The translations under genes were made by a program, and so were the position numbers. DNA of 21,890 bases. It comes from a virus (taxonomy: Duplodnaviria > Heunggongvirae > Uroviricota > Caudoviricetes). The stretch is taken from IMG/VR virus record IMGVR_UViG_2531839180_000003, positions 1 through 21,890 of that record; one strand, 5' to 3'. Under the pieces are notes generated by a model. That model saw only the letters and a list, made by a program, of their open reading frames with translations. It was not told where the DNA came from and made no database searches. Positions 1-12,368 of this stretch are shown here, in pieces; the stretch's first letter is position 1, and every line of letters begins with the position of its first letter.

Positions 1-57
1 TGTGTTGTCCTGCATAGCAATGCGCCGTAATACCTTACACCACGGCGCTGATGGTGA

Positions 58-363
58 TTACTCTGGTTCTTTGGTCTTGCGACGCTGGAGTTCTTCGCGT
101 GCAACGGTGACAAGCTGCCCGATTTCTTCCGCTGCTTTGATGCCGATTTGTTCGACCTTAGCCAGGGCATCCAGTGACGACACAAGGGGATTTTCTCCGC
201 TGCCTTCTGCTTGGCGGCGGGCTATTTCTCCGCGCATGGCGGTTACGATAAATCCGGCATTGCTTTCGCCGTCCAGCTTAACGGATTCCATCCCTTGCAT
301 AACATCTAGTGGGACTCTGACAGTTGTCAGTTGTGATTTTGCGTTTTTGTTAGCCGTTGCCAT
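58..363 (-). CDS. putative ribbon-helix-helix (Arc/CopG-like) transcriptional regulator
   Basis: 101-aa ORF. AGGAG Shine-Dalgarno (revcomp of 372-376) lies 8 nt upstream of the ATG. N-terminal strand-helix pattern LTTVRVPLDVMQGMESV resembles RHH folds. Sits back-to-back with the promoter/operator at 425-462. Family assignment is by eye only. Confidence 0.5.
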   Translation of the reverse strand: MATANKNAKSQLTTVRVPLDVMQGMESVKLDGESNAGFIVTAMRGEIARRQAEGSGENPLVSSLDALAKVEQIGIKAAEEIGQLVTVAREELQRRKTKEPE

Positions 364-424
364 TTCTGAAACTCCTAATCATCGGTGTGTTTCAGTATAC
401 ACAAAAAAAGAAATACAAAAAGCC

Positions 425-462
425 TTGACGTGTGTTTCATGCGCTCATAACATGAAACACAC
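425..462 (+). promoter_or_regulatory. sigma70-like promoter overlapped by a 12-bp perfect inverted repeat (operator candidate)
   Basis: -35 TTGACG at 425-430, 17-nt spacer, -10 TAACAT at 448-453. Inverted repeat GTGTGTTTCATG (430-441) / CATGAAACACAC (451-462) with a 9-bp spacer straddles the -10. Confidence 0.5.
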
Positions 463-560
463 CGAAAGGATTGTTGAAATACAAAGAGCAACGCCCCGCA
501 GTGCCGGAAACACATACGGGGCGTCTAACCACCAACGATAACGAGAGTATCGAGGCAGCT

Positions 561-764
561 ATGAGAAATCATACCATACACCCGCGAGGGCGGGATTCGC
601 ACAACCTGAATAAATTCACCTGGCGTTTTATCGCCCTGAGCGCCGCAAAACCGCGTGTGATTACCATCGTGGCCACCAGTGAACAGGAAGCCCGCCAGCA
701 ATCCCCGGCTGGCTGCGTGATGGTGTTCACCGCCCGTATCCGCAAGGAGGTGCGCCATGCCTGA
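561..764 (+). CDS. hypothetical small protein, first gene of rightward operon; start uncertain
   Basis: In-frame part of track ORF 471..764. ATG at 561 is preceded by GAGG. Stop overlaps the start region of the next gene. No recognisable motif. Confidence 0.3.
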   Translation: MRNHTIHPRGRDSHNLNKFTWRFIALSAAKPRVITIVATSEQEARQQSPAGCVMVFTARIRKEVRHA

Positions 765-1077
765 TATGTCAAATTACCAGTACCTGATTAATCCGCATTT
801 TAACTGTGAGCATGATATTGCTAAAAAGGTTTATTCCGCTGCGGATGGGGCTACTGACAATATATCAATGGCTGTTGCGTCAATTGGTAGCCTGATGTGG
901 CATGCGTCAGAAAATGAGGAATATGACGCAAAGGCCATGCGCATTGATATGGGTAATATCGGTTTGTTACTGGCAATGCTTGGACATTTTGATATTTCGT
1001 TACGGTGCACCATTGAAAATGCCACAGATGCATTAAATGCCATAAAGAAAGCGAATACTGATTCAAATCGGGGATAA
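757..1077 (+). CDS. hypothetical protein
   Basis: 106-aa ORF with a strong GGAGG Shine-Dalgarno at 742-746. Same strand and tight spacing with downstream genes. Confidence 0.55.
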   Translation: MPDMSNYQYLINPHFNCEHDIAKKVYSAADGATDNISMAVASIGSLMWHASENEEYDAKAMRIDMGNIGLLLAMLGHFDISLRCTIENATDALNAIKKANTDSNRG

Positions 1078-1083
1078 ATAATC

Positions 1084-1383
1084 ATGAGAACGTATTTATC
1101 TGGCTTGACTGCCAGCGGTTATGCACATCCCAAAATTATCCCCGGCGCTATTTATCGGGATAAGAACGGCAACAGAGTAACAGTAAAATCGATAATGTTT
1201 GACCGTGTGTACTTTATTCGTGATGGCTATTCATTTCATAGCTCGCTGAACGTGGAGATCTTTATTTGCAGATTCCGGCGGGAAATCCCGCCTTCCAGAA
1301 ATAACCATGTGTCACGTGTGGATGTGGATAAAAAACTACAGGAACTGAAAAACATGATTGCCGCGTGGAGAGAGCAGAAATGA
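1084..1383 (+). CDS. hypothetical protein
   Basis: 99-aa ORF with GGGGA upstream of the ATG. Its 3' end overlaps the start of the helicase gene, suggesting translational coupling. Confidence 0.5.
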   Translation: MRTYLSGLTASGYAHPKIIPGAIYRDKNGNRVTVKSIMFDRVYFIRDGYSFHSSLNVEIFICRFRREIPPSRNNHVSRVDVDKKLQELKNMIAAWREQK

Positions 1384-3197
1384 AAAAAGCGCCAAATTTA
1401 AAACACCAACCGCGTGACAAAATGACGGAAGTCATCATTTTTGCGGGTAGTGATGCGTGGGCACATGCGAAGCAGTGGCAGGAACAGGACGGGCGACTGG
1501 CTGGCGATAACGTGCCACCTGTCTGGCTTGGAGAGCAACAACTTGCCGAACTGGACAACCTGCAAATCGTACCAGACGGACGCTATCGCGTGCGTCTCTA
1601 TCAGGCGGGGTTATTGCGTCCGGGACTTGTTAATACCATCGGGCAGAAACTGGCAGCGGCAGGTGTCAGGGATGCTGATTATTACCCTGAAGGAATGCAC
1701 AGCCAGAAACGGGAGAACTGGCGCGAATATCTGGAGCGTGAGCGGGGAGAGCTGGCGGAAAAGAAAAAGGTAGTTGAACTGCCTGTAAAGAAAAAAGAGC
1801 GGGTAAAAGACGATAACGCTTCATCACTGGCGCTTAACCAGATGGGAGCAAGTCAACGCGGCGAAGTTCTCCTGGCACATTATGGTGGTGAACTGGCGAT
1901 TCATGCTGACTCTGACACTGTTCACCATTACAACGGCGTTGTATGGGAGCCGGTTCAGGATAAAGAGTTACAGCGTGCTATGGCGCAGATTTTCATTGAT
2001 GCGGAGATCAGCTATTCACAGAACGCTATTAAATCAGCGGTCGATACCATGAAGTTAAGTTTGCCTGTAATGGGGAATACAGCCCGTAACTTGATTGGAT
2101 TCAGTAACGGGGTATTTGATACCAGAACAGGTAATTTTCGGGAGCATAACAAAAACGACTGGTTGTTAATTGCCAGTGAATTACCGTTCAGCCCACCAGC
2201 AGAGGGGGAAACGCTGGCAACACATGCGCCGAATTTCTGGAAGTGGTTGCACCGTTCGGTGGCTGAGAATGATCGCAAAGCGGATCGTGTACTGGCGGCA
2301 TTATTCATGGTGCTGGCGAACAGATATGACTGGCAGTTATTCATTGAGGTAACTGGTCCTGGTGGAAGCGGTAAAAGCGTAATGGCGGAGATTTGCACCA
2401 TGCTGGCGGGTAAGGCTAATACAGTATCAGCAAGCATGAAGGCGCTGGAAGATGCAAGGGAACGTGCGTTAGTGGTTGGCTTTTCTCTGATTATCATGCC
2501 GGATATGACCCGCTACGCTGGTGATGGGGCAGGGATTAAGGCCATTACAGGCGGTGACAAGGTGGCAATTGACCCGAAACACAAAGCTCCCTACTCAACG
2601 CGTATTCCGGCAGTAGTGCTGGCGGTTAACAATAACGCCATGTCATTCAGTGACCGCAGCGGGGGGATCTCACGTCGTCGGGTGATATTCAATTTTTCGG
2701 AAGTTGTACCGGAGAACGAACGTGATTCGATGCTGGCGGAAAAAATAGAAGGTGAGCTGGCGGTAGTGATTCGCCATCTGCTTACACGGTTTGCTAACCA
2801 GGACGAAGCCAGACGCCTGTTATATGAGCAGCAGAAATCTGAAGAAGCACTGGCGATAAAGCGAGAGGGGGATTCGCTGGTGGACTTCTGCGGCTATCTC
2901 ATGGCGTCGGTAATGTGTGATGGCCTGTTAGTGGGTAATGCTGAAATTGTGCCATTCAGCCCGCGCAGATATCTCTATCATGCCTATCTGGCTTATATGA
3001 GGGCACATGGGTTTGGTAAACCTGTAACACTGACGCGCTTCGGTAAAGATATGCCGGGGGCAATGGCGGAATATGGCAGGGAGTATATGAAACGGAAAAC
3101 GAAGCACGGTTTGCGTTCAAACGTGACACTGACGGAGGAATCAGAAGACTGGATGCCATCATGTGTATCGGTCACTAATGACGATAGCAAAAATTAA
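1380..3197 (+). CDS. P4 alpha-family replication protein (D5/SF3-type helicase domain with Walker A GPGGSGKS)
   Basis: 605 aa from the ATG at 1380 (GGAGAGAG upstream; track ORF begins at 1365). Walker A TGPGGSGKS and Walker B-like LIIMPDM are followed by the motif layout typical of the phage/plasmid primase P4-family C-terminal region. An N-terminal primase active site cannot be confirmed by eye. The TGTTCACC iteron origin lies immediately downstream. Confidence 0.85.
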   Translation: MKKAPNLKHQPRDKMTEVIIFAGSDAWAHAKQWQEQDGRLAGDNVPPVWLGEQQLAELDNLQIVPDGRYRVRLYQAGLLRPGLVNTIGQKLAAAGVRDADYYPEGMHSQKRENWREYLERERGELAEKKKVVELPVKKKERVKDDNASSLALNQMGASQRGEVLLAHYGGELAIHADSDTVHHYNGVVWEPVQDKELQRAMAQIFIDAEISYSQNAIKSAVDTMKLSLPVMGNTARNLIGFSNGVFDTRTGNFREHNKNDWLLIASELPFSPPAEGETLATHAPNFWKWLHRSVAENDRKADRVLAALFMVLANRYDWQLFIEVTGPGGSGKSVMAEICTMLAGKANTVSASMKALEDARERALVVGFSLIIMPDMTRYAGDGAGIKAITGGDKVAIDPKHKAPYSTRIPAVVLAVNNNAMSFSDRSGGISRRRVIFNFSEVVPENERDSMLAEKIEGELAVVIRHLLTRFANQDEARRLLYEQQKSEEALAIKREGDSLVDFCGYLMASVMCDGLLVGNAEIVPFSPRRYLYHAYLAYMRAHGFGKPVTLTRFGKDMPGAMAEYGREYMKRKTKHGLRSNVTLTEESEDWMPSCVSVTNDDSKN

Positions 3198-3211
3198 ACT
3201 TATGGAATAAC

Positions 3212-3432
3212 TGTTCACCACTGTTCACCCTGTCATAAATATCTTTTATATCAGTATATTATAGGGTGAACAGTTATTTATGAACTGTTCACCAAACTAT
3301 TCACTGTTCACCTTTTTGATTGTTTATTGAGCTTCAAGGGTGAACAGTGGTGAACAGTTGGTGAATAGTTTTTGTGAAACTGTTCACCCCTTAACCTTAT
3401 GAATTAAAAGATAAAATATCAAAAGGTGAACA
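3212..3432. repeat. origin of replication: cluster of TGTTCACC iterons
   Basis: Exact TGTTCACC at 3212-3219, 3222-3229, 3286-3293, 3305-3312, 3381-3388. Exact reverse GGTGAACA at 3265-3272, 3339-3346, 3349-3356, 3425-3432. Degenerate copies at 3297-3304, 3360-3367, 3433-3440. An AT-rich spacer at 3232-3263 separates iteron groups. This octamer is the known binding site of P4 alpha in ori and crr. Confidence 0.8.
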
Positions 3433-3518
3433 GGTGAAGGGTTAAAACGCAAAAATTTTAATTTACTGCTGTGAGATAAAGACTATGACAGTAAAGCACA
3501 CAAAAATACGCGCTTGAT

Positions 3519-3719
3519 TTGACGGAACACTGGTTAAGGGTGTCGATAAAAATCATCGACCGCAACGCCGGGGAAGGATATGCGAAAGCACATCCCGAAC
3601 TGATTAGCGCATTCATGACAACGGCAGCTGCAAACTTTGCCACGCTGACAGAACGGGAGATTGCCGAAGCGGAACAGGTGACAACCATCAACGTTAAAAC
3701 CGGAGAGCAGACAGCATGA
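3519..3719 (+). CDS. hypothetical small protein (non-ATG start, uncertain)
   Basis: 66-aa ORF starting at TTG. Its stop overlaps the ssb start as ATGA, suggesting coupling. No clear Shine-Dalgarno. Confidence 0.35.
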   Translation: MTEHWLRVSIKIIDRNAGEGYAKAHPELISAFMTTAAANFATLTEREIAEAEQVTTINVKTGEQTA

Positions 3720-4141
3720 CAGCACAGATAGCGGCTTACGGGCGGCTGGTGGCTGACCCGCAGTTAAAGACCACCAGCAAGGGTACACAAATGACGATGG
3801 CTAGTATGGCGGTCCCCCTTCCGTGCAGCCAGGCAGATGACGGAACGGCGATGATGTGGTTATCCGTCCTGGCGTTTGGCAGACAGGCCGACGCACTGGC
3901 AAAACACCACAAAGGCGAACTGGTGAGCGTGGCGGGTAACATGCAGGTAAGCCAGTGGACAGGCCAGAACGGCGAAACGCGGCAGGGCTGGCAGGTTATC
4001 GCAGACAGCGTGATCAGTGCGCGAACAGCGCGTCCGGGCGGCAAAAAAGGCCAGCAGGGGCAGGCCACTGACGCACTGAACAGGGCAAAACAGCAGACGG
4101 GTCAGCACGATGATCCGTACGGGGACAACATACCGTTTTAG
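3716..4141 (+). CDS. ssb: single-stranded DNA-binding protein (SSB)
   Basis: 141 aa. OB-fold-like N-terminus (IAAYGRLVADPQL...), Gly/Gln-rich linker and C-terminal ...DDPYGDNIPF resembling the canonical SSB acidic tip DDDIPF. GGAGAG Shine-Dalgarno upstream. Confidence 0.8.
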   Translation: MTAQIAAYGRLVADPQLKTTSKGTQMTMASMAVPLPCSQADDGTAMMWLSVLAFGRQADALAKHHKGELVSVAGNMQVSQWTGQNGETRQGWQVIADSVISARTARPGGKKGQQGQATDALNRAKQQTGQHDDPYGDNIPF

Positions 4142-4163
4142 CGACAACAGAGGGGACATTCCA

Positions 4164-4406
4164 GTGACATTTGAAGAAGTCCAGCAACATAAAAAGTTTC
4201 ATGATTTTGATGATCTGGAAACCATGACAGCAAAAAAATATCGCCGTCTGCTTTCTTCCGATGCGTTGTTTGTTGTGGATCATCATGATTTTCTGCGTAG
4301 CTCACTGACCGGGGAAATTTTCGCAACCAACCGTGAGCAGGTGGAAGCGATGATCGAATATCTGTGGAAAATAAGGCGCAGAATGCGAGATCCCGTGAAA
4401 CGGTAA
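4164..4406 (+). CDS. hypothetical protein (start ambiguous between ATG 4110 and GTG 4164)
   Basis: Track ORF 4110..4406. The ATG at 4110 overlaps ssb by 32 nt. The in-frame GTG at 4164 is preceded by GAGGGGA. Followed by the terminator at 4415-4443. Confidence 0.4.
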   Translation: MTFEEVQQHKKFHDFDDLETMTAKKYRRLLSSDALFVVDHHDFLRSSLTGEIFATNREQVEAMIEYLWKIRRRMRDPVKR

Positions 4407-4414
4407 AATAATAA

Positions 4415-4443
4415 AGGCCTGGTAAAATCCAGGCCATTTTTTT
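4415..4443. terminator. bidirectional rho-independent terminator between convergent genes
   Basis: Stem AGGCCTGG (4415-4422) / CCAGGCCA (4429-4436), loop TAAAAT, then a T-run to 4443. The upstream A-run gives a U-tract on the opposite strand. Confidence 0.7.
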
Positions 4444-4948
4444 ACAGTAAGCCTATTAGGGCACTTGCGCCAGCCCCAACAATGCTGGCAACGGTACTGT
4501 TTTCCAGTAACTGCTTTAATACTGATTTGGCTTGTACATCCCCCGATTTAGCGACTTTTTCAACCAGTTCAGTGATGCTGATGTTTACCAGCATATGGTT
4601 ATGCTCACCTATCTGCACTTGATCACCACTAATTGAACCAATGTTAAATGTATTACTTTTAGTTGGCGTCATATGTTCATTTCCCGTGATATTTTCAATA
4701 TAGAGAGTCAACATATTTGGATGATTGGTTCCCTGTCTGCGGGTTCCATTGGGAAGCAACTTCATATCTATAATTTTTAGATTTATCTCGTTTTTACCGA
4801 CACGCTGGATAATGTGTTGACCAATAGTTACTTCCGGTTCATTTGTATATGGAATTAATACCTTGTTTTCTTTTGCGTTTCTTTTACCTCTGAATGATTC
4901 GCCATTAATTATGAAAGTATCAGGATATACCATTGCGCTTAAATTCAT
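4442..4948 (-). CDS. hypothetical AT-rich protein with short hydrophobic C-terminal tail (accessory gene candidate)
   Basis: 168-aa ORF and the only minus-strand gene inside the 363-11547 plus-strand block. AAAGGA Shine-Dalgarno upstream. Possible -10 TATTAT / -35 TTTACA on the minus strand at 4980-5010. C-terminus STVASIVGAGASALIGLL. No recognisable family. Confidence 0.65.
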   Translation of the reverse strand: MNLSAMVYPDTFIINGESFRGKRNAKENKVLIPYTNEPEVTIGQHIIQRVGKNEINLKIIDMKLLPNGTRRQGTNHPNMLTLYIENITGNEHMTPTKSNTFNIGSISGDQVQIGEHNHMLVNISITELVEKVAKSGDVQAKSVLKQLLENSTVASIVGAGASALIGLL

Positions 4949-5234
4949 GATGCGTCCTTTGTTGTAGTCAGAGACAGCAATAATAGGCCATGGTTTACTT
5001 CTTTTGTAAATTATTTGTTCGTGTTCTTTCGTGGTTGTTCGGTCTGACTGACAGGTGTTTACATACTGATTTTTATGTATATGTTGGAGCGTGGCACTCA
5101 GACGTGAGCCGCCACAATGCCGCCTGACCCCCTGCGCGATGCCGGGTTGATCTGCGAGATGCCGAGAGTGTCGGGCGGCGCTCCCCCCGTGTTGGTTTCA
5201 CGTCCTGAATCTTAACCAATACGAGAAAACCTTC

Positions 5235-6404
5235 ATGAAGAAATTAATCGAACTCCGCCAGCAAAAAAACGCCCTGAAAAACCAGATGCGATCCCTGCTG
5301 GAAAAAGCCGACAGTGAAAACCGTAGTCTGAACGCTGAAGAAGGCAAACAGTTTGATGAACTGCGTGCAAAAGCTGATGCCCTCGACACAGAAATTTCCC
5401 GCCTCGAGTCTGTGGCTGATGAAGAACGCAGCAAGCCAGGAACGGGCATCCAGAAATTATCATCTGATGAATTGCGTAACTACATCGTAACCGGAGATGT
5501 GCGATCACTGTCCACCAGCACTGACAGCGGCAGGGATGGCGGATATACCGTAATTCCTGAGCTTGATCGCGAAGTCATGCGCCAGCTACAGGATGACAGT
5601 GTTATGCGCGTGATCGCGACCGTGAAGACCGCAAAATCAAATGAGTTTCAGAAACTGGTTTCCACTGGCGGCGCAACTGTAGGACGAGGCACAGAAGGCA
5701 GCGCACGCAGTGAAACCAACACCCCGAAAATTGAACGCGTAACCATCAAGTTGAATCCGATCTACGCCTACCCGAAAACCACGCAGGAAATCCTGGATTT
5801 TTCAGAGGTGGATATTCTGGGCTGGTTATCCTCCGAAATTGCCGACACGTTCGCCAGCACCGAAGAGGATGATTTTGTTAATGGCGACGGTAACGGCAAG
5901 CCGAAAGGCTTCATGGCTTACACCCGTGCGGCGACCAGTGACAAAACCCGCGCTTTTGGCACCATTGAAAAAATAGTAGCGGCAAGTGGAACCGCCATTA
6001 CAGCGGACGAACTGATCGACATTCTCTACAAGCTGAAAGCGAAATACCGCAAAAATGCCGTCTGGGTGATGAACTCGGGCACGGCAGGGACACTACAGAA
6101 GCTGAAAAATGAGAACGGCGATTATATCTGGCGCGACAGCCTTAAAGAAGGTGCGCCGGATATGTTGCTTGGTCGTCCTGTTTACTGCCTGGAGTCCATG
6201 CCGGACATCGGCGCAGGAAAAGCACCGCTAGCGGTTGGCGATTTCAGTCGTGGTTATTTCATCGTTGATCATGTAACAGGGATTCGCACCCGACCGGACA
6301 ACATTACTGAACCCGGATTCTACAAGGTCCACACGGATAAATATCTGGGCGGTGGTGTGGTGGATTCAAACGCCATCAAAATTCTGGAAATGAAAGCTGG
6401 CTAG
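5235..6404 (+). CDS. HK97-family major capsid protein with N-terminal coiled-coil delta domain
   Basis: 389 aa. Coiled-coil N-terminus (LRQQKNALKNQMRSLLEKA...), then capsid body with the NGDGNGKPKG motif matching HK97 gp5 NGDGTG and a conserved C-terminal region. Confidence 0.9.
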   Translation: MKKLIELRQQKNALKNQMRSLLEKADSENRSLNAEEGKQFDELRAKADALDTEISRLESVADEERSKPGTGIQKLSSDELRNYIVTGDVRSLSTSTDSGRDGGYTVIPELDREVMRQLQDDSVMRVIATVKTAKSNEFQKLVSTGGATVGRGTEGSARSETNTPKIERVTIKLNPIYAYPKTTQEILDFSEVDILGWLSSEIADTFASTEEDDFVNGDGNGKPKGFMAYTRAATSDKTRAFGTIEKIVAASGTAITADELIDILYKLKAKYRKNAVWVMNSGTAGTLQKLKNENGDYIWRDSLKEGAPDMLLGRPVYCLESMPDIGAGKAPLAVGDFSRGYFIVDHVTGIRTRPDNITEPGFYKVHTDKYLGGGVVDSNAIKILEMKAG

Positions 6405-6416
6405 TCATGAGTAAGG

Positions 6417-6438
6417 AGGAGGCTGCGGCCTCCTTTTT
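6417..6438 (+). terminator. intrinsic terminator or attenuator immediately after the major capsid gene
   Basis: Stem AGGAGGC (6417-6423) / GCCTCCT (6428-6434), loop TGCG, then TTTT (6435-6438), 13 nt after the capsid stop codon. Confidence 0.55.
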
Positions 6439-6458
6439 CAGCTTTATGGAGTACACCG

Positions 6459-7019
6459 ATGAAAAACACCGATTTTGAAATCCGCACATCTGAACTGACC
6501 GCCAGCAATAAAAAGCTGGTGGGGTATGCCGTTCGCTGGAACAGCCTTTCAGAAATTATCTGGGACGAATTCCGCGAACAGTTCACGCCGGGGGCTTTTG
6601 CTGACTATCTGGCGACGGGTAATGATGTGCGCTGCCTGTATGAGCATGACTATACCCAACTGCTGGGGCGCACCAAATCCGGCACTCTGGTACTGACTGA
6701 GGATAACACCGGGTTACGTTTTGAACTGACACCGCCGGATACCCAGCTTGGAAAAGATGTGCTTACGCTGGTGGAGCGTGGCGACATTACAGGAATGAGC
6801 TTTGGTTTTCGCGCATTATGCGAGGAGTGGAGTATCGCGCAAAAACCGTATCTGCGTACCGTAACCGCCGCTGAACTCCGTGAAATCACAATAACGTCGA
6901 TGCCTGCTTATCCAGAATCTGGCGTGGAGATTGCCCACCGTTCGTTGTTTGCACAGCACCCTGAATTACGTCCGACAGGAAATAATCGTCATCGCTGGTC
7001 TGAGCTGGCGGGGTTGTGA
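6459..7019 (+). CDS. HK97-family prohead protease
   Basis: 186 aa with GGAG Shine-Dalgarno. Motifs such as GMSFGF and the overall pattern fit the prohead serine protease (S78) family. Position is adjacent to capsid and portal. Confidence 0.8.
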   Translation: MKNTDFEIRTSELTASNKKLVGYAVRWNSLSEIIWDEFREQFTPGAFADYLATGNDVRCLYEHDYTQLLGRTKSGTLVLTEDNTGLRFELTPPDTQLGKDVLTLVERGDITGMSFGFRALCEEWSIAQKPYLRTVTAAELREITITSMPAYPESGVEIAHRSLFAQHPELRPTGNNRHRWSELAGL

Positions 7020-7020
7020 T

Positions 7021-8235
7021 ATGTGGTGGCCTTTTAGTCGTAAAAAAAGCGAGCAGCGTAACCTGTCCATTGATGATTTTCTGGCGCTGTCCGGCGTACC
7101 GAATACCGGATCCGGAGAATATGTTTCTGCTGGGACGGCTGAATCATTGCCTGCAGTGATGAATGCGGTTTCTGTCATCGCTGAGGCGGTGGCCACGATG
7201 CCGTGTTATCTGTATCTGGTACGTAATGACAAGGGCAGGGAGGCGCGGGAATGGCTGGACAGTCACCCGGTAGATATTCTGCTGAATGAGCAGCCTAATT
7301 CGTGCCAGACACCTTACCAGTTTAAACGCACAATGATGCGTCACTGCCTGCTGAACGGTAACGCCTATGCGGTTATTGAGTGGGGGCAGGACGGGCAGCC
7401 AAAATCACTTCATCCTTATGCGCCGAGGTGTGTTGTACCGGAACGCACAGGCGCACACAAATACCGCTATACCATCACCGAACCCTGTACAGGAACGGTG
7501 CGCACGTATTTACAGGAAGAAGTTTTGCATCTCCGCTATGCCTCGGATGATGGCTTTCTGGGGCGTTCCCCCGTCACGATTTGCCGTGAGGCGCTGGGGC
7601 TTGGCCTTGCTCAACAGCGTCACGGAGCCAGCATTATGAAAGATGGCATGATGGCGGCAGGGATTATCACGTCAGGCGAATGGCTGGACGGCGTGAAAGG
7701 TAAACAGGCATTGGATGCTCTGGAACGCTACAAGGGGGCGAAAAATGCCGGAAAAACGCCAATCCTTGAAGGGGGCATGGATTACAGGCAACTGGGAATG
7801 AGTAACCAGGATGCGGAATGGCTGGCCTCCCGTCGCTTCTCCATTGAAGACATCGCCCGCATGTTCAACGTATCGCCTATTTTTCTGCAGGAATACAGCA
7901 ACAGCACCTACAGCAATTTCAGCGAGGCAAGCCGCGCGTTTCTGACCATGACAATGCGCCCGTGGCTGGCGAACTTCGAACAGCAAATCAAGGCCGCTTT
8001 GCTGGTGGCTTCTCCCGTACCTGGTACCCGTTATCTGGTTGAGTTTGATTCAGCCGATTTATTACGCGCCACACCCACCGAACGTTATGCCACGTATGAG
8101 AAAGGGATTAAGAACGGGATCATGAATCCGAACGAAGCCCGTGAGCGTGAGGGTATGCCGCCGCGTGAAGGTGGTGATGAGTTCAGCCAGGCATGGAAAC
8201 AGACTGTGGAAATTAAAGGGAGAAAAGATGAGTGA
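7021..8235 (+). CDS. HK97-family portal protein
   Basis: 404 aa from the ATG at 7021, directly after the protease stop (track ORF extends to 6931). Portal-like C-terminal region ...NPNEAREREGMPP. Confidence 0.85.
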   Translation: MWWPFSRKKSEQRNLSIDDFLALSGVPNTGSGEYVSAGTAESLPAVMNAVSVIAEAVATMPCYLYLVRNDKGREAREWLDSHPVDILLNEQPNSCQTPYQFKRTMMRHCLLNGNAYAVIEWGQDGQPKSLHPYAPRCVVPERTGAHKYRYTITEPCTGTVRTYLQEEVLHLRYASDDGFLGRSPVTICREALGLGLAQQRHGASIMKDGMMAAGIITSGEWLDGVKGKQALDALERYKGAKNAGKTPILEGGMDYRQLGMSNQDAEWLASRRFSIEDIARMFNVSPIFLQEYSNSTYSNFSEASRAFLTMTMRPWLANFEQQIKAALLVASPVPGTRYLVEFDSADLLRATPTERYATYEKGIKNGIMNPNEAREREGMPPREGGDEFSQAWKQTVEIKGRKDE

Positions 8236-8530
8236 AGCCAGAATTACACCTGATGAAGTCAGGGCACATCTTCGACTTGATGATGATTTATCCGGTGAAG
8301 GCGAACTTCTGAAAATGTATACCGATGCGGCGCTGGAAGCCTGCCAGAAGCATATCGGGAAACGTTTTGAAGACGGGCTGGAATTTACCCCGGCAATGCG
8401 TGTTGGTTGCCTGATGTACATCGCTTTCCTGTACGAGAACCGGGAAGCGGTTTCACCAGTGGAGCACTCGGAACTGCCTATGGCTATTTCTGCGCTCTGG
8501 TCAGTTTATCGTGACGTAGGGGTGTACTGA
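8228..8530 (+). CDS. gp6-like head-tail connector (head completion) protein
   Basis: 100 aa from the ATG at 8228, overlapping the portal stop as ATGAGTGA, with AGGGAG Shine-Dalgarno. Pattern RAHLRLDDD...AALEA...FLYENRE is typical of phage gp6-like connectors. Confidence 0.7.
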   Translation: MSEARITPDEVRAHLRLDDDLSGEGELLKMYTDAALEACQKHIGKRFEDGLEFTPAMRVGCLMYIAFLYENREAVSPVEHSELPMAISALWSVYRDVGVY

Positions 8531-8970
8531 TGCCGTGGCAACCATTAAGGCGATGCACTGAGCCTGGCTGTAATAAGCGCGTGAAGTCCGGCAAGTGTGA
8601 AGAGCACAGGCGGGCTGCATGGCGTGCAGAGGATGCCAGACGGGGACACCGCCGCGCGCGCGGGTATTCCCGACAGTGGGACAAATACCGCGCCCTGTAC
8701 CTGAGCAAAAACCCGTTATGCGTGCGTTGTCTGGCTAAGGGGATTTATACGCCAGCTCTTGTGGTGGATCACATCATTCCCATCAATGGCGGCGGTGATG
8801 TTCTCTTCTGGCCTGAGTGGAATCACCAGGCATTGTGCCAGACGTGCCACAACCGTAAGACGACACGAGAAGATCCAGCCACGAAAGCAAACCGTAAAGC
8901 GGGCATGTATCGCGAGCAGGAAGAACGGGCGGCACACCGTAACGACTGGATGTATGGCGATGATGACTGA
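8530..8970 (+). CDS. phage-associated HNH endonuclease
   Basis: 146 aa. Cys pairs (CTEPGC, CVRC, CQTCHNRK) and VDHIIP...N...H fit an HNH zinc-binding nuclease. Start overlaps the connector stop as TGATG. Lies upstream of terS as in HK97-type cos phages. Confidence 0.85.
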   Translation: MPWQPLRRCTEPGCNKRVKSGKCEEHRRAAWRAEDARRGHRRARGYSRQWDKYRALYLSKNPLCVRCLAKGIYTPALVVDHIIPINGGGDVLFWPEWNHQALCQTCHNRKTTREDPATKANRKAGMYREQEERAAHRNDWMYGDDD

Positions 8971-9258
8971 ACAGGAGCAAACCAGGCTGATACGTGGACT
9001 GATAAGGCAGCGTGACACATGGAAGACACAGGAGACAGAGCACAAAGCCAACAGGACTGGGCGCACAAAACGCACCACAGCGAAGCGATTAACCGACCGT
9101 GACCGCGAGGTCATGGAATGTTTTCGCAATCGCTGGTGAGGCCGTCAGAGGGGGTGGGGGTGGTTTTCAGGACGAAACCGTCCCTGCCGGACACCGACCG
9201 CCCCCTCAAATTTTTGTGCACGGTAATTTTTTTGAAAATAATTGGGCGAAAAAAGAAC

Positions 9259-9615
9259 ATGGCAAGACCACCAAAAGCCCCCGCTTACCTGGATGAAATC
9301 GCGGTCAGGCAGTGGAAGGAAAAATCGCGCCAGCTTTCCGGGCGGGAAGACCTTACCCCCGCCGACTGGAGCAATCTGGAACTGTATTGCGTTAACTACT
9401 CTATATACCGCAAAGCCGTCGAAGACCTTGCGACGCGCGGGTTCAGCATTGTTAACAGTCAGGGCAGCGAGAGCAGAAACCCCGCACTGAGCGCAAAGGC
9501 TGACGCAGAAAGAATAATGATCAAAATGGCTTCTTTGCTGGGTTTTGACCCGGTAAGCCGTCGCAGAAATCCACCGGAAACAGAGGAAGAGGACGAACTT
9601 GACCGCCTGGCATGA
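9259..9615 (+). CDS. terS: terminase small subunit (P27-family-like)
   Basis: 118 aa from the ATG at 9259; the track ORF from 9118 has a low-complexity N-terminal extension that is probably non-coding. MARPPKAP...LDE...W...LELYC pattern and position directly upstream of terL. Confidence 0.7.
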   Translation: MARPPKAPAYLDEIAVRQWKEKSRQLSGREDLTPADWSNLELYCVNYSIYRKAVEDLATRGFSIVNSQGSESRNPALSAKADAERIMIKMASLLGFDPVSRRRNPPETEEEDELDRLA

Positions 9616-11260
9616 GTACGCAGAAGGCGTAAAAAACGGCAAAATTACGGCCTGTAAACGACTGAAACAGGCTGTTAAACGGTATTTTTCTGACCTTGAA
9701 AACTCCCTTTACACGTTCGATCCGGAGGTCGTGGAGCGGTTTATTGCCTTTTCCCGGGTGTGCCCGCACGTAAAAGGCGCAATGCGCGGTAGCCCCATTG
9801 AACTTGAGCCGTGGCAGCAGTTCGCCTTTGCCTGCATCCTGGGATTTAAGGTTAAGGCCACCGGACGGCGCAAATACACCAGCGCATTCATTGAAGTACC
9901 GCGAAAAAATGCCAAATCCACGGTCGCCGCTATCCTGGCTAACTGGTTTCTGGTTATGGAAAACGGGCAGCAGGATATTTACACCGCCGCCGTGAGTCGT
10001 GATCAGGCGCGGATCGTGTTTGATGATGCGCGTCAGATGTGCCTTTTATCCCGACCGTTACGAAAGCGGGTAAATATTCAGGCGCACAAGGTGATACACC
10101 CGAAAACCAACAGCCTGTTAAAGCCACTGGCAGCAAAAGCGGCAACCATTGAGGGGACAAACCCGAGTCTTGCCATTGTGGATGAATATCACCTGCACCC
10201 AGACAACGGGGTTTATTCCGCACTTGAACTGGGGATGGGGGCGCGTCCGGAGGGGCTGTTATTTGCCATCACCACATCGGGGAGCAACGTTGTTTCAGCC
10301 TGTAAACAACACTACGACTATTGCTGCCAGATACTGGATGGTGAAGAGGTGAACGAATCCATGTTCGTACTGATTTACGAGCTGGATGATGAAAGCGAGG
10401 TTGACGATCCGGCGATGTGGATAAAGGCGAATCCCAATATCGATGTTTCCGTCGATCGTGAAAAACTGGCCTCAACCATCCAGAAAGCGCGGGGTATTCC
10501 GTCGCAGTGGGTGGAAATGCTCACCAAGCGATTCAATATCTGGTGTCAGGGGGCTACGCCGTGGATGGGTAACGGTGCATGGGCGGAGTGCGCCGGAACG
10601 TTCGCTGAGGCGGATTTATACGGGCAGGAGTGCTATGCGGGGCTGGACTTATCATCAACCAGCGATATTTCCAGCGTGTGCTATGCCTTTCCGGTCGGTA
10701 AAAAGATTATGCTGGTTTCACGTCACTATCTACCGGAATTTCAGCTACAGAACCCTGCCAATAAAAACCGCGCCATCTATCGCCAGTGGGCAAAGGCGGG
10801 CTGGATACGCACAACACCGGGTGACTGCATTGATTATGACCGTATCCGTGATGACATCATGGCGGATGCAGAGAATTTCAATATCAGGCTGGTGGGTTTC
10901 GATACATGGAACGCCACGCACCTGAGGACGCAGCTACAGGGAGCGGGATTTGAGGTGGAGCCGTTCCCGCAAACGTACCTTCGTTTTAGTCCGGCGGCGA
11001 AATCGTTCGAAGTTTTTGTTAACCGGAAGGTGATTGTTCATCGTGGTGATCCGGTGCTGGCCTGGTCAATGAGTAATGTTGTGATGCAGAGTGACGCGAA
11101 CGCCAATATCAAGCCGAACAAGAAAAAATCATCCAATAAGATAGACCCGAGCGTTGCGGCGCTGATGGCGTTTGGCACATTCCAGGCTGAGCATGAGGAA
11201 TTTGCATTTGATATGAGCGACAGCCAGAAAGAGCGACTTGCGGCATTTGATGGGGTATGA
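9599..11260 (+). CDS. terL: terminase large subunit
   Basis: 553 aa from a TTG start at 9599, preceded by GAGGAAGAGGA, overlapping terS by 17 nt. ATPase N-terminal domain and nuclease C-terminal domain pattern typical of Terminase_1-type large subunits. Confidence 0.9.
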   Translation: MTAWHEYAEGVKNGKITACKRLKQAVKRYFSDLENSLYTFDPEVVERFIAFSRVCPHVKGAMRGSPIELEPWQQFAFACILGFKVKATGRRKYTSAFIEVPRKNAKSTVAAILANWFLVMENGQQDIYTAAVSRDQARIVFDDARQMCLLSRPLRKRVNIQAHKVIHPKTNSLLKPLAAKAATIEGTNPSLAIVDEYHLHPDNGVYSALELGMGARPEGLLFAITTSGSNVVSACKQHYDYCCQILDGEEVNESMFVLIYELDDESEVDDPAMWIKANPNIDVSVDREKLASTIQKARGIPSQWVEMLTKRFNIWCQGATPWMGNGAWAECAGTFAEADLYGQECYAGLDLSSTSDISSVCYAFPVGKKIMLVSRHYLPEFQLQNPANKNRAIYRQWAKAGWIRTTPGDCIDYDRIRDDIMADAENFNIRLVGFDTWNATHLRTQLQGAGFEVEPFPQTYLRFSPAAKSFEVFVNRKVIVHRGDPVLAWSMSNVVMQSDANANIKPNKKKSSNKIDPSVAALMAFGTFQAEHEEFAFDMSDSQKERLAAFDGV

Positions 11261-11265
11261 CGAGA

Positions 11266-11547
11266 ATGACTGAAACTGATCTACTAAAAATAATTCGCCG
11301 CATTACCGGAATCAGTCAGCAGCCTGACGAACAGGCTACACAGCCGGACAGCGTGATAGCCGAAAATTACGCGCGTGTGGTGGCTGAGGTAATGCGCCGT
11401 GACGGTATTGAGCTTAACGGCGTGGATATGCGCAACATACGAACCAGAGTTCTTGAGTTGCTGGCATACCGTCGCCGTTCTCAACAACGGAGGGAGAGCG
11501 CGAAAAATACTTACCAGTGGAGGAAGCCGGAGCACTTACGGCGGTAA
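11266..11547 (+). CDS. hypothetical protein
   Basis: 93 aa from the second in-frame ATG just after the terL stop. No recognisable motif. Confidence 0.4.
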   Translation: MTETDLLKIIRRITGISQQPDEQATQPDSVIAENYARVVAEVMRRDGIELNGVDMRNIRTRVLELLAYRRRSQQRRESAKNTYQWRKPEHLRR

Positions 11548-11564
11548 CTGGTTGATATTACCGA

Positions 11565-11773
11565 AAGTGCAAAAATGCACTTAGCAACTGGTGGCGAGTT
11601 GCAGATCTGCAACTCGACTATGAAACTACCCGTAGTTTGGGTAGTAAGAGTAACACCCAGATTTTGGGGCTTACTCGCGATACCCAAATAAAGGGTATCG
11701 GTGTAAGAAATATCGTTTCTCATATGTGAGCACCGAGGGCGGAATTCCGCCTTCGGTTACTTATTGTGCTCAT
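11565..11773. repeat. array of five inverted repeats including a 22-bp perfect palindrome
   Basis: Hairpin AAGTGCA/TGCACTT (11565-11582). Perfect palindrome CGAGTTGCAGATCTGCAACTCG (11595-11616). CTACCC/GGGTAG (11627-11644). CGATACCC/GGGTATCG (11678-11700). Nested hairpin 11726-11773 with core CCGAGGGCGG-AATT-CCGCCTTCGG (11733-11756). Confidence 0.6.
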
Positions 11774-12152
11774 GCACAGGGAGGGGCGGGTCAAATCTCT
11801 GTACCCTGACGTCTTCCGGACTGCCAGCCCCATCGATTTTTTATACCCGCGAAAAATGAAAAACGCTTCACGCTGGTGGGCCTGATGCCGATATGGTGAG
11901 CCACATACCGGAAATATCCACCAGCACGGCAACGGCAGAATAGCCACAACACAGAAAACCCACGAATATGGGGTTTTTGTTATGGCATGGTCATGATGAC
12001 CGCCCCTGCTCTGAATGGTGGAAATCACCACGCAGATCATCCACCAGCTTCATGACGGATAGCCGGAAAATGATAACGGTTACGCAAAACCCCCAGCAAA
12101 TTTCCCTTTTGTTTGTTATTGTTCGTCGTTGTTCGTAGAGCTTCAACGAAAT

Positions 12153-12176
12153 GTGTGGTCAGTTGTGTGGTCAGTT
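12153..12176. repeat. tandem direct repeat TGTGTGGTCAGT x2 upstream of int
   Basis: Exact 12-mer at 12153-12164 and 12165-12176. Also GTTCGT x2 at 12121-12136. Located 190-250 bp upstream of the integrase start. Confidence 0.6.
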
Positions 12177-12368
12177 TTGAGGCTTTTAATTTATGCATTC
12201 TTAAAAACTTATTTATTATCAATTACTAACAGGAATTAGTAAGAAATACCCGTATTACCTGATCTGGATAATGCCAGCGTAGTCCTGGCGATTATTCAAG
12301 ATAAAATCAAAGACTTATCTGCGATTTTCGAACCGTTTTGTTTAGCCGATCACATCGAGGCTCACAAA

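Follow-up and report, generated by a model that had tools for sequence, protein, structure and literature searches.

A dyad of twelve P4-type octamers as the proposed replication origin of a capsid-forming satellite in Escherichia coli

Phage-inducible chromosomal islands (PICIs) of Gram-negative bacteria have their origins directly 3′ of the rep gene, where two sets of iterons surround AT-rich DNA (Fillol-Salom et al. 2018; PMC6092414). In one of them, EcCICFT073, the pri-rep-ori segment maintains a temperature-sensitive plasmid, and deletion of either rep or ori reduces that maintenance (PMC6092414). Satellite phage P4 has iterons of its own: its database record annotates the octamer TGTTCACC as "ori type 1 repeat". 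We count six exact copies in P4 ori (9310-9413), and five exact plus five degenerate copies in P4 crr. The P4 alpha protein reportedly binds this octamer, a finding said to go back to Ziegelin et al. in 1993. Type I iterons in P4, the binding domain of alpha, and origins of PICIs 3′ of rep are all known from earlier work.

Here we report on a cluster of the same octamer in a 21,890-nt stretch of viral DNA (IMG/VR record IMGVR_UViG_2531839180_000003, positions 1 to 21,890; hereafter the window). This DNA matches the chromosome of E. coli O114:H49 90-9280 at 100% identity, and the cluster belongs to a capsid-forming PICI (cf-PICI) of about 14.9 kb. The cluster, at 3210-3442, follows the gene for a 605-aa initiator related to P4 alpha (1380-3197). 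From the sequence comparisons below, we propose that 3210-3442 is the vegetative replication origin of this cf-PICI, with a probability of about 0.85. Origins are not discussed in the cf-PICI literature that we searched, and a full-text literature search with the octamer gave nothing but unrelated primer matches.

The octamer cluster and its dyad layout

The exact octamer TGTTCACC/GGTGAACA, counted on both strands, occurs 11 times in the window. In 100 dinucleotide shuffles of the window it occurred 0.83 +/- 0.99 times, close to the chance value of about 0.7 given in an earlier note on this DNA, and the richest shuffle held four copies. Nine of the 11 fall within 3212-3432, five of them on the plus strand (starting at 3212, 3222, 3286, 3305 and 3381) and four on the minus strand (3265, 3339, 3349 and 3425). 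A Poisson estimate from the shuffle rate puts the probability of at least nine octamers in 221 bp at about 6e-25. Three degenerate octamers, TATTCACT (+), GGTGAATA (-) and GGTGAAGG (-), bring the cluster to 12 sites. The nine exact and three degenerate copies that the earlier note had reported, in both orientations within about 230 bp, were correctly counted and placed. The consensus extends beyond the octamer to ACTGTTCACC, of which the cluster holds eight exact 10-mers.

Could these be chance or neutral repeats, the debris of slippage or duplication, with no function? In favor of this one can say only that repeats are generally abundant in intergenic DNA that is AT-rich. The shuffles and the Poisson estimate speak against it, as does the presence of the cluster region in 689 of 5426 complete E. 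coli genomes. The layout is also kept across genera, and the iterons are more conserved than the spacers between them. We regard this explanation as effectively refuted. The same search gave a median of two places per genome, which was considered as a sign of co-resident origins of the same specificity. We did not adopt this reading, since the query is palindromic and probably hits its own locus a second time, on the other strand.

Two single octamers lie outside the cluster, at 724-731 and at 1917-1926. The latter is a full ACTGTTCACC within the rep gene, and it is kept in a relative that is 96.8% identical (L086). Neither the octamer at 724 nor that at 1919 is present in a 74%-identical relative (L003). 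We rejected the pair as a second site or a P4-like internal origin: their number is in the chance range and they are conserved in close relatives at most.

The 12 sites form one mirror-symmetric, imperfect dyad of 233 bp (3210-3442) centered on 3326. Site centers lie at -110.5, -100.5, -57.5, -36.5, -24.5 and -17.5 on the left of this point and at +16.5, +26.5, +37.5, +58.5, +102.5 and +110.5 on the right, where the orientation is opposite to that on the left. Each arm consists of two direct sites, a spacer of 35-36 nt (19-20% GC), one inverted site, 13 nt, and three direct sites. The paired outer sites are 10 bp apart in the left arm and 8 bp apart in the right arm.

The left arm (3210-3312, plus strand) reads ++ [AT spacer] - [13 nt] + (+) +. 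It opens with exact copies of TGTTCACC at 3212-3219 and, 10 bp further on, at 3222-3229. The left AT-rich spacer (3230-3264; 35 nt, 20% GC), a candidate melting region, follows, and then an exact minus-strand octamer at 3265-3272, which reads GGTGAACA on the plus strand. The three remaining plus-strand sites are an exact TGTTCACC at 3286-3293, the degenerate TATTCACT at 3298-3305 (two mismatches; relatives have TATTCACC or TGTTCACC here) and an exact TGTTCACC at 3305-3312. A central spacer of 26 nt (3313-3338; 27% GC) occupies the dyad center. The right arm (3339-3442, minus strand) inverts this layout and reads - - (-) [13 nt] + [AT spacer] - (-). Its minus-strand sites at 3339-3346 and 3349-3356 are exact, and the one at 3360-3367 is the degenerate GGTGAATA, with one mismatch. 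An exact plus-strand TGTTCACC at 3381-3388 precedes the right AT-rich spacer (3389-3424; 36 nt, 19% GC), a second candidate melting region. An exact minus-strand octamer at 3425-3432 and the degenerate GGTGAAGG at 3433-3440 (minus strand; two mismatches, with an exact copy at this position in relatives) complete the arm. The earlier note had described an AT-rich spacer and several head-to-head pairs. The AT-richness stands, though there are two spacers and not one; the opposed orientations also stand, and they are better described as one global dyad than as separate pairs. Folded as a single strand, the cluster makes one long hairpin (-51.5 kcal/mol, against -22.6 kcal/mol in shuffles; z=-8.8), which is simply the signature of the dyad.

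Each arm has the layout of P4 ori. On its complementary strand, P4 has an ori core of the form ++ [35 nt AT] - [12 nt] +++ (spacings 10/43/22/11/10), and the left arm is collinear with the reverse complement of this core. The left spacer of the island matches the P4 ori spacer at 63% identity (p=0.001), and the right spacer matches the P4 crr spacers at 67-72% identity (p<=0.001). No significant similarity was found between the ori and crr spacers of P4 themselves. The island locus may therefore be a compact fusion of an ori-like left arm and a crr-like right arm, a reading that stays suggestive because the AT-rich spacers are so short. P4 crr consists of two 120-bp direct repeats directly 3′ of alpha, 4.5 kb from ori, and the island cluster holds the same position 3′ of its initiator as a single dyad with two inverted arms. 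Given this position, and since the island has no other cluster, it appears to combine what P4 splits into ori and crr.

The same resemblance allows for another reading, in which the cluster is a crr-like cis enhancer or loading platform only and replication starts from a different origin in some other part of the island. It would fit the position of the cluster just 3′ of an alpha-like gene, the similarity of the right-arm spacer to the crr spacers, and the A/T tract found after the last iteron pair in both P4 crr and the island. However, the 38-kb locus spanning the whole island contains no second octamer cluster, only singletons; the left arm has the same layout as the P4 ori core; and in EcCICFT073 the gene and its immediate 3′ region sufficed for replication. 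We consider an enhancer without origin function very unlikely. The earlier note had named the cluster a P4-type origin. Its octamer is indeed the one annotated and counted in P4 ori and crr, and the layout and the initiator agree as well. The division into separate ori and crr is not found here, nor are P4 type II repeats: the decamer CAYTTAAAGY (up to one mismatch) has three scattered matches in the window against 5.7 expected, none in or near the cluster. Nor is the element itself P4-like; it is a cf-PICI.

The cluster begins close behind the initiator gene: its first octamer starts 15 bp past the stop codon (3197). No open reading frame (ORF) of at least 40 aa overlaps 3198-3457, which makes the region non-coding, and the intergenic segment 3198-3518 has a GC content of 33% compared with 49% for the window. 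A scan for DnaA boxes found none in the cluster, a scan of 3100-3800 found no sigma-70-like promoter or terminator, and an Rfam scan of window positions 1-12000 found no family.

Plasmid iterons commonly double as copy-control and autoregulatory sites. The 12 sites might accordingly be mainly a regulatory operator, serving autoregulation, control of the two downstream genes (a hypothetical ORF and SSB) or iteron "handcuffing", and they do separate rep from the genes that follow it in the operon. Yet no promoter or terminator was found in the segment scanned; the AT-rich spacers, the dyad and the collinearity with P4 ori are features of an origin, and a homologous region works as one. Regulation would moreover add to origin function and not replace it. 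An exclusively or mainly regulatory cluster is, in our estimate, a one-in-twenty prospect, although a regulatory or copy-control side role could accompany an origin at 3210-3442.

An initiator that varies with its iterons

The gene at 1380-3197 (plus strand) encodes a 605-aa protein with a P4-alpha-like superfamily 3 (SF3) helicase and an origin-binding domain; the earlier note had called the gene alpha-like and a helicase gene. Over residues 145-595 the protein shares 50% identity with P4 alpha. In the middle of the protein, Pfam matches D5_N, DUF5906 and Pox_D5 (SF3 helicase); the match to TIGR01613 ("phage/plasmid primase, P4 family") scores 95.5 bits, under the cut-off of 108.7 bits. A winged-helix origin-binding domain is found at residues 497-593 (2868-3158, plus strand), where phmmer aligns the protein with PDB 1KA8, the origin-binding domain of P4 alpha (P4 residues ~680-777), at E=1.8e-24. 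P4 and the island thus have in common an identical octamer in both orientations, a homologous SF3 helicase and a homologous C-terminal origin-binding domain.

The two proteins differ at their N-termini. The N-terminus of P4 alpha matches Zn_Ribbon_Prim and Toprim, whereas residues 1-167 of the island initiator have no Pfam match at E<=10. The N-terminal ~130 aa have a Toprim-like fold (domain at 1380-1829, plus strand) in which the P4 motifs AEG and DRD are replaced by FAG and GLL. P4 alpha has both a zinc ribbon and the catalytic E/DxD residues; the island protein lacks both. By sequence, it is probably a helicase and origin-binding protein and not an active primase, "helicase" is an apt label, and self-priming is unlikely. 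The RefSeq label of this product (WP_000710154.1), "DNA primase family protein", is probably wrong as far as it says DNA primase.

We compared the locus with relatives found by scanning one genome per species, which gave 80 Enterobacterales loci with initiators 48-84% identical to that of the island. Most of the 80 have repeated octamers at about 15, 25, 68, 89, 100, 108, 142-163, 184, 228 and 236 past the stop codon. In the 330 bp 3′ of the gene, the density of the class octamer is 14.4/kb, against 0.051/kb elsewhere in the loci (about 280-fold). Among nine loci of the TGTTCACC class, from several genera and species, 73% of iteron columns are invariant compared with 29% of the other columns of the cluster (p=1.4e-11).

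Six octamer variants occur across these loci. The layout is unchanged, and all copies in a cluster switch as a set. TGTTCACC is found in E. coli, Klebsiella, Citrobacter, Pectobacterium, Xenorhabdus and P4; TGTCTACC in E. ruysiae, Kluyvera and Enterobacter; TCTCCACC in Yersinia, Rahnella and Edaphovirga; TGTCCGCC and TGTCCACC each in Serratia; and TATCTACC in Raoultella. The loci behind this comparison include L007, L011, L014, L015-L023, L067, L068 and L084, each taken as 330 bp 3′ of the gene. Each class pairs with its own short protein segment near the end of the binding domain, with insertions of one or five residues in some, and in the island initiator the variable segment lies around residues 570-580. 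A joint switch of all octamers within a fixed layout is expected for sites read by one co-evolving protein.

The strong dyad symmetry, and the fact that the island has its own TerS, TerL and HNH genes, might point instead to a packaging (cos/pac) or recombination site, or to a palindrome or cruciform with no protein partner. But the cluster accompanies an alpha-like gene in EcCICFT073, in Xenorhabdus elements and in P4, where packaging modules are different or absent; it is about 6 kb away from terS and does not coincide with the att repeat. What is conserved in sequence is mainly the octamers and not the stem pairing, and all octamer copies switch along with the protein class. We judge these explanations extremely unlikely.

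If 3210-3442 is the origin, initiation could proceed as follows. On induction of the island by a helper phage, an AlpA-dependent rightward operon would produce the 605-aa protein, as the PICI literature leads one to expect. Its C-terminal winged-helix domain would bind the twelve (AC)TGTTCACC sites, a step to which the homology with the P4 domain, the identical octamer and the co-variation all point. Because the direct repeats are spaced 10-11 bp apart, the bound domains would sit on one face of the DNA. With the two arms in mirror image, the bound protomers would seed a pair of SF3 helicase rings of opposite orientation, located at the 35-36-nt AT spacers or beside them. The spacer DNA would melt, and bidirectional theta replication, as described for P4, would follow. 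Priming would probably fall to host DnaG, since the initiator has a degenerate Toprim domain and no zinc ribbon, and the island SSB would coat the unwound strands.

A circular database record has the same cassette. NZ_CP148328.1 (L086) is a 10,790-bp circular record, deposited as a plasmid, that corresponds to an excised PICI. Its rep and origin are 96.8% identical to those of the window, with nine octamers at identical spacing, and they are its only evident replicon. It also carries int, AlpA, Icd-like and DUF4222 genes and a protease/capsid fusion, and its morphogenesis module is unlike that of the window island. The circle is compatible with autonomous replication.

Several points weigh against the origin proposed here. 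The L086 circle could be an excised form that does not replicate. Deletion of the EcCICFT073 ori lowered colony numbers and did not abolish them (PMC6092414). The co-variation of iterons and protein amounts to only about five independent switches, and linkage contributes to it because the protein segment and the iterons are physically adjacent. Calling the co-varying segment the "wing" follows from homology: the AlphaFold2 model of the C-terminal binding domain, built from a shallow alignment, failed (pLDDT 36) and was not used. Binding and origin firing at 3210-3442 are predicted from sequence. For the place where the DNA would melt, for the loading of a double ring and for replication in both directions, we extrapolate from P4 and from other SF3 systems. 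Even the binding of the octamer by P4 alpha is taken from earlier literature and from the annotation of the P4 record.

The host island and neighboring features

In the E. coli chromosome, the island has rcnR on one side and thiM on the other. It is bordered by a direct repeat of 30 bp, AAATGTGTGGTCAGTTGTGTGGTCAGTTTT (window 12149-12178 and L001 12250-12279), which is likely the att site. The first part of the island contains, in order, int, DUF6387, AlpA, an Icd-like gene, DUF4222, the 605-aa initiator, the iteron cluster, a small ORF and SSB. After SSB, the RefSeq annotation lists HK97-type capsid, protease, portal, connector, HNH, TerS and TerL genes. Pfam supports AlpA, connector, HNH, Terminase_4 and Phage_capsid. 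The annotation of the island includes no tail or lysis genes, and sid, psu, delta and epsilon have no tblastn matches in the locus spanning the island. Published cf-PICIs have int, alpA and rep, their own capsid, protease, portal, connector, HNH, TerS and TerL, no tail or lysis genes, and a size of 10-18 kb (10.1101/2025.02.11.637232; PMC10085698). The island agrees with these features in gene content and size, and it is a cf-PICI and not a P4-like satellite.

The SSB gene (3716-4141, plus strand; Pfam SSB E=1.8e-15) is two genes downstream of the proposed origin. The order rep, ori, hypothetical ORF and SSB also occurs in EcCICFT073 and in the Sp7 element of E. coli O157 Sakai, and the island SSB is likely an accessory to replication.

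Two smaller features lie in and beside the cluster. About 10 nt past the last iteron pair there is an A-tract/T-tract, caaaaattttaattta (3450-3470), which is kept across iteron classes and also follows each P4 crr repeat. It may be a bend, an unwinding element or part of a promoter. The IHF consensus WATCARNNNNTTR has an exact match at 3249-3261, in the left AT spacer; the window has five matches where 1.56 are expected. Inspection by eye shows a site with one mismatch at the same place in relatives and in P4 ori.

The N-terminal module of the initiator also occurs in other proteins. In Sakai Sp7, an EcCIEDL933-type cf-PICI, a gene at L085 4601-7110 encodes the same module (70% identity over 140 aa) fused to an unrelated 710-aa helicase, and 11 copies of ATAACCCGCA stand 3′ of this gene in place of the P4 octamer. 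The module is likewise fused to RepA-like AAA ATPases (database proteins P0137, P0138 and P0141). These fusions indicate, at the sequence level, domain shuffling among satellite initiators. Other database proteins join the rep N-terminus directly to SSB (P0122 and P0123; 233 aa) or most of rep to a portal domain (P0007 and P0008; 793 aa). By their appearance they come from such islands after a deletion that removed the binding domain together with the origin.

Comparison with known satellites and replicons

The closest experimental precedent is EcCICFT073. Its Pri-Rep protein is 48.7% identical to the island initiator over the full length, N-terminal domain included. Both elements have the order int-alpA-...-icd-like-...-DUF4222-rep-[iterons]-hyp-SSB, and in both the iterons stand directly 3′ of rep in a ++[AT]-+++ layout. 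The island cluster has what PICI origins are described to have: it is directly 3′ of rep, and its iteron sets flank AT-rich DNA, here in two spacers. The iterons themselves differ, being TGTCTACC/TATCTACC in EcCICFT073 and TGTTCACC in the island, and so do the C-terminal specificity segments. As a classical PICI, EcCICFT073 takes its capsids from the helper, whereas the island encodes its own capsid and terminase. Origin function was shown by experiment for EcCICFT073; for the island it is proposed from sequence.

P4 shares the octamer and differs as an element. The island has HK97-type capsid and terminase genes, and the P4 hijacking genes sid, psu and delta are absent from it. Seven P4-like loci of Pantoea, Erwinia and Serratia (L077-L083) carry sid and delta and encode alpha proteins with a P4-like C-terminus; no TTCACC cluster was found in their ~9.4 kb.

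Some details may be new. First, the exact P4 octamer may not have been described in a cf-PICI before, nor the mirror fusion of ori-like and crr-like arms. Second, the primase-less initiator and the six specificity classes may be new as well. With a primase-less initiator, the island would depend on host priming. The cluster nevertheless reveals no new kind of system. For a satellite replicon that is very common in E. coli, it locates the probable origin and a likely code of initiator-DNA recognition. This can be used for annotating satellite origins, for predicting cross-replication or exclusion between satellites, and for correcting the "DNA primase" label.

Since cf-PICIs and P4 have the same octamer and homologous binding domains, their initiators may fire or titrate each other's origins. 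Taken together with the idea that the compact dyad is ancestral to the P4 replicon, this is a speculative proposal that we hold to be unlikely. If it were true, replication cross-talk or incompatibility would link P4-like satellites, PICIs and cf-PICIs that share a cell into a network, and the six classes of iterons and protein segments would be variants that escaped from it.

More distant replicons are built along similar lines. In Staphylococcus aureus pathogenicity islands (SaPIs) and other Gram-positive PICIs, as in the island, the gene for a self-loading initiator-helicase is followed by two iteron sets around AT-rich DNA (PMC6092414). The SaPI helicase, DNA-binding domains and iterons differ from those of the island; the likeness is one of published description. 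Among eukaryotic viruses, SV40 large T antigen and papillomavirus E1 each combine an SF3 helicase with an origin-binding domain that acts on dyad-arranged short repeats beside AT-rich DNA, and this arrangement lets two oppositely oriented rings assemble. Their DNA-binding domains and site sequences are unrelated to those of the island, so the comparison is an analogy only, and we know of no demonstration of double-ring assembly for P4 alpha or the island protein. The rep and iteron cassette is found in cf-PICIs and also in EcCICFT073, a classical PICI. Elements of Xenorhabdus/Photorhabdus carry it too, and their initiators have retained a primase domain like that of P4. What cf-PICIs, classical PICIs, Xenorhabdus elements and P4 have in common is one modular cassette of helicase, binding domain and dyad iteron origin, the specificity of which has been switched several times.

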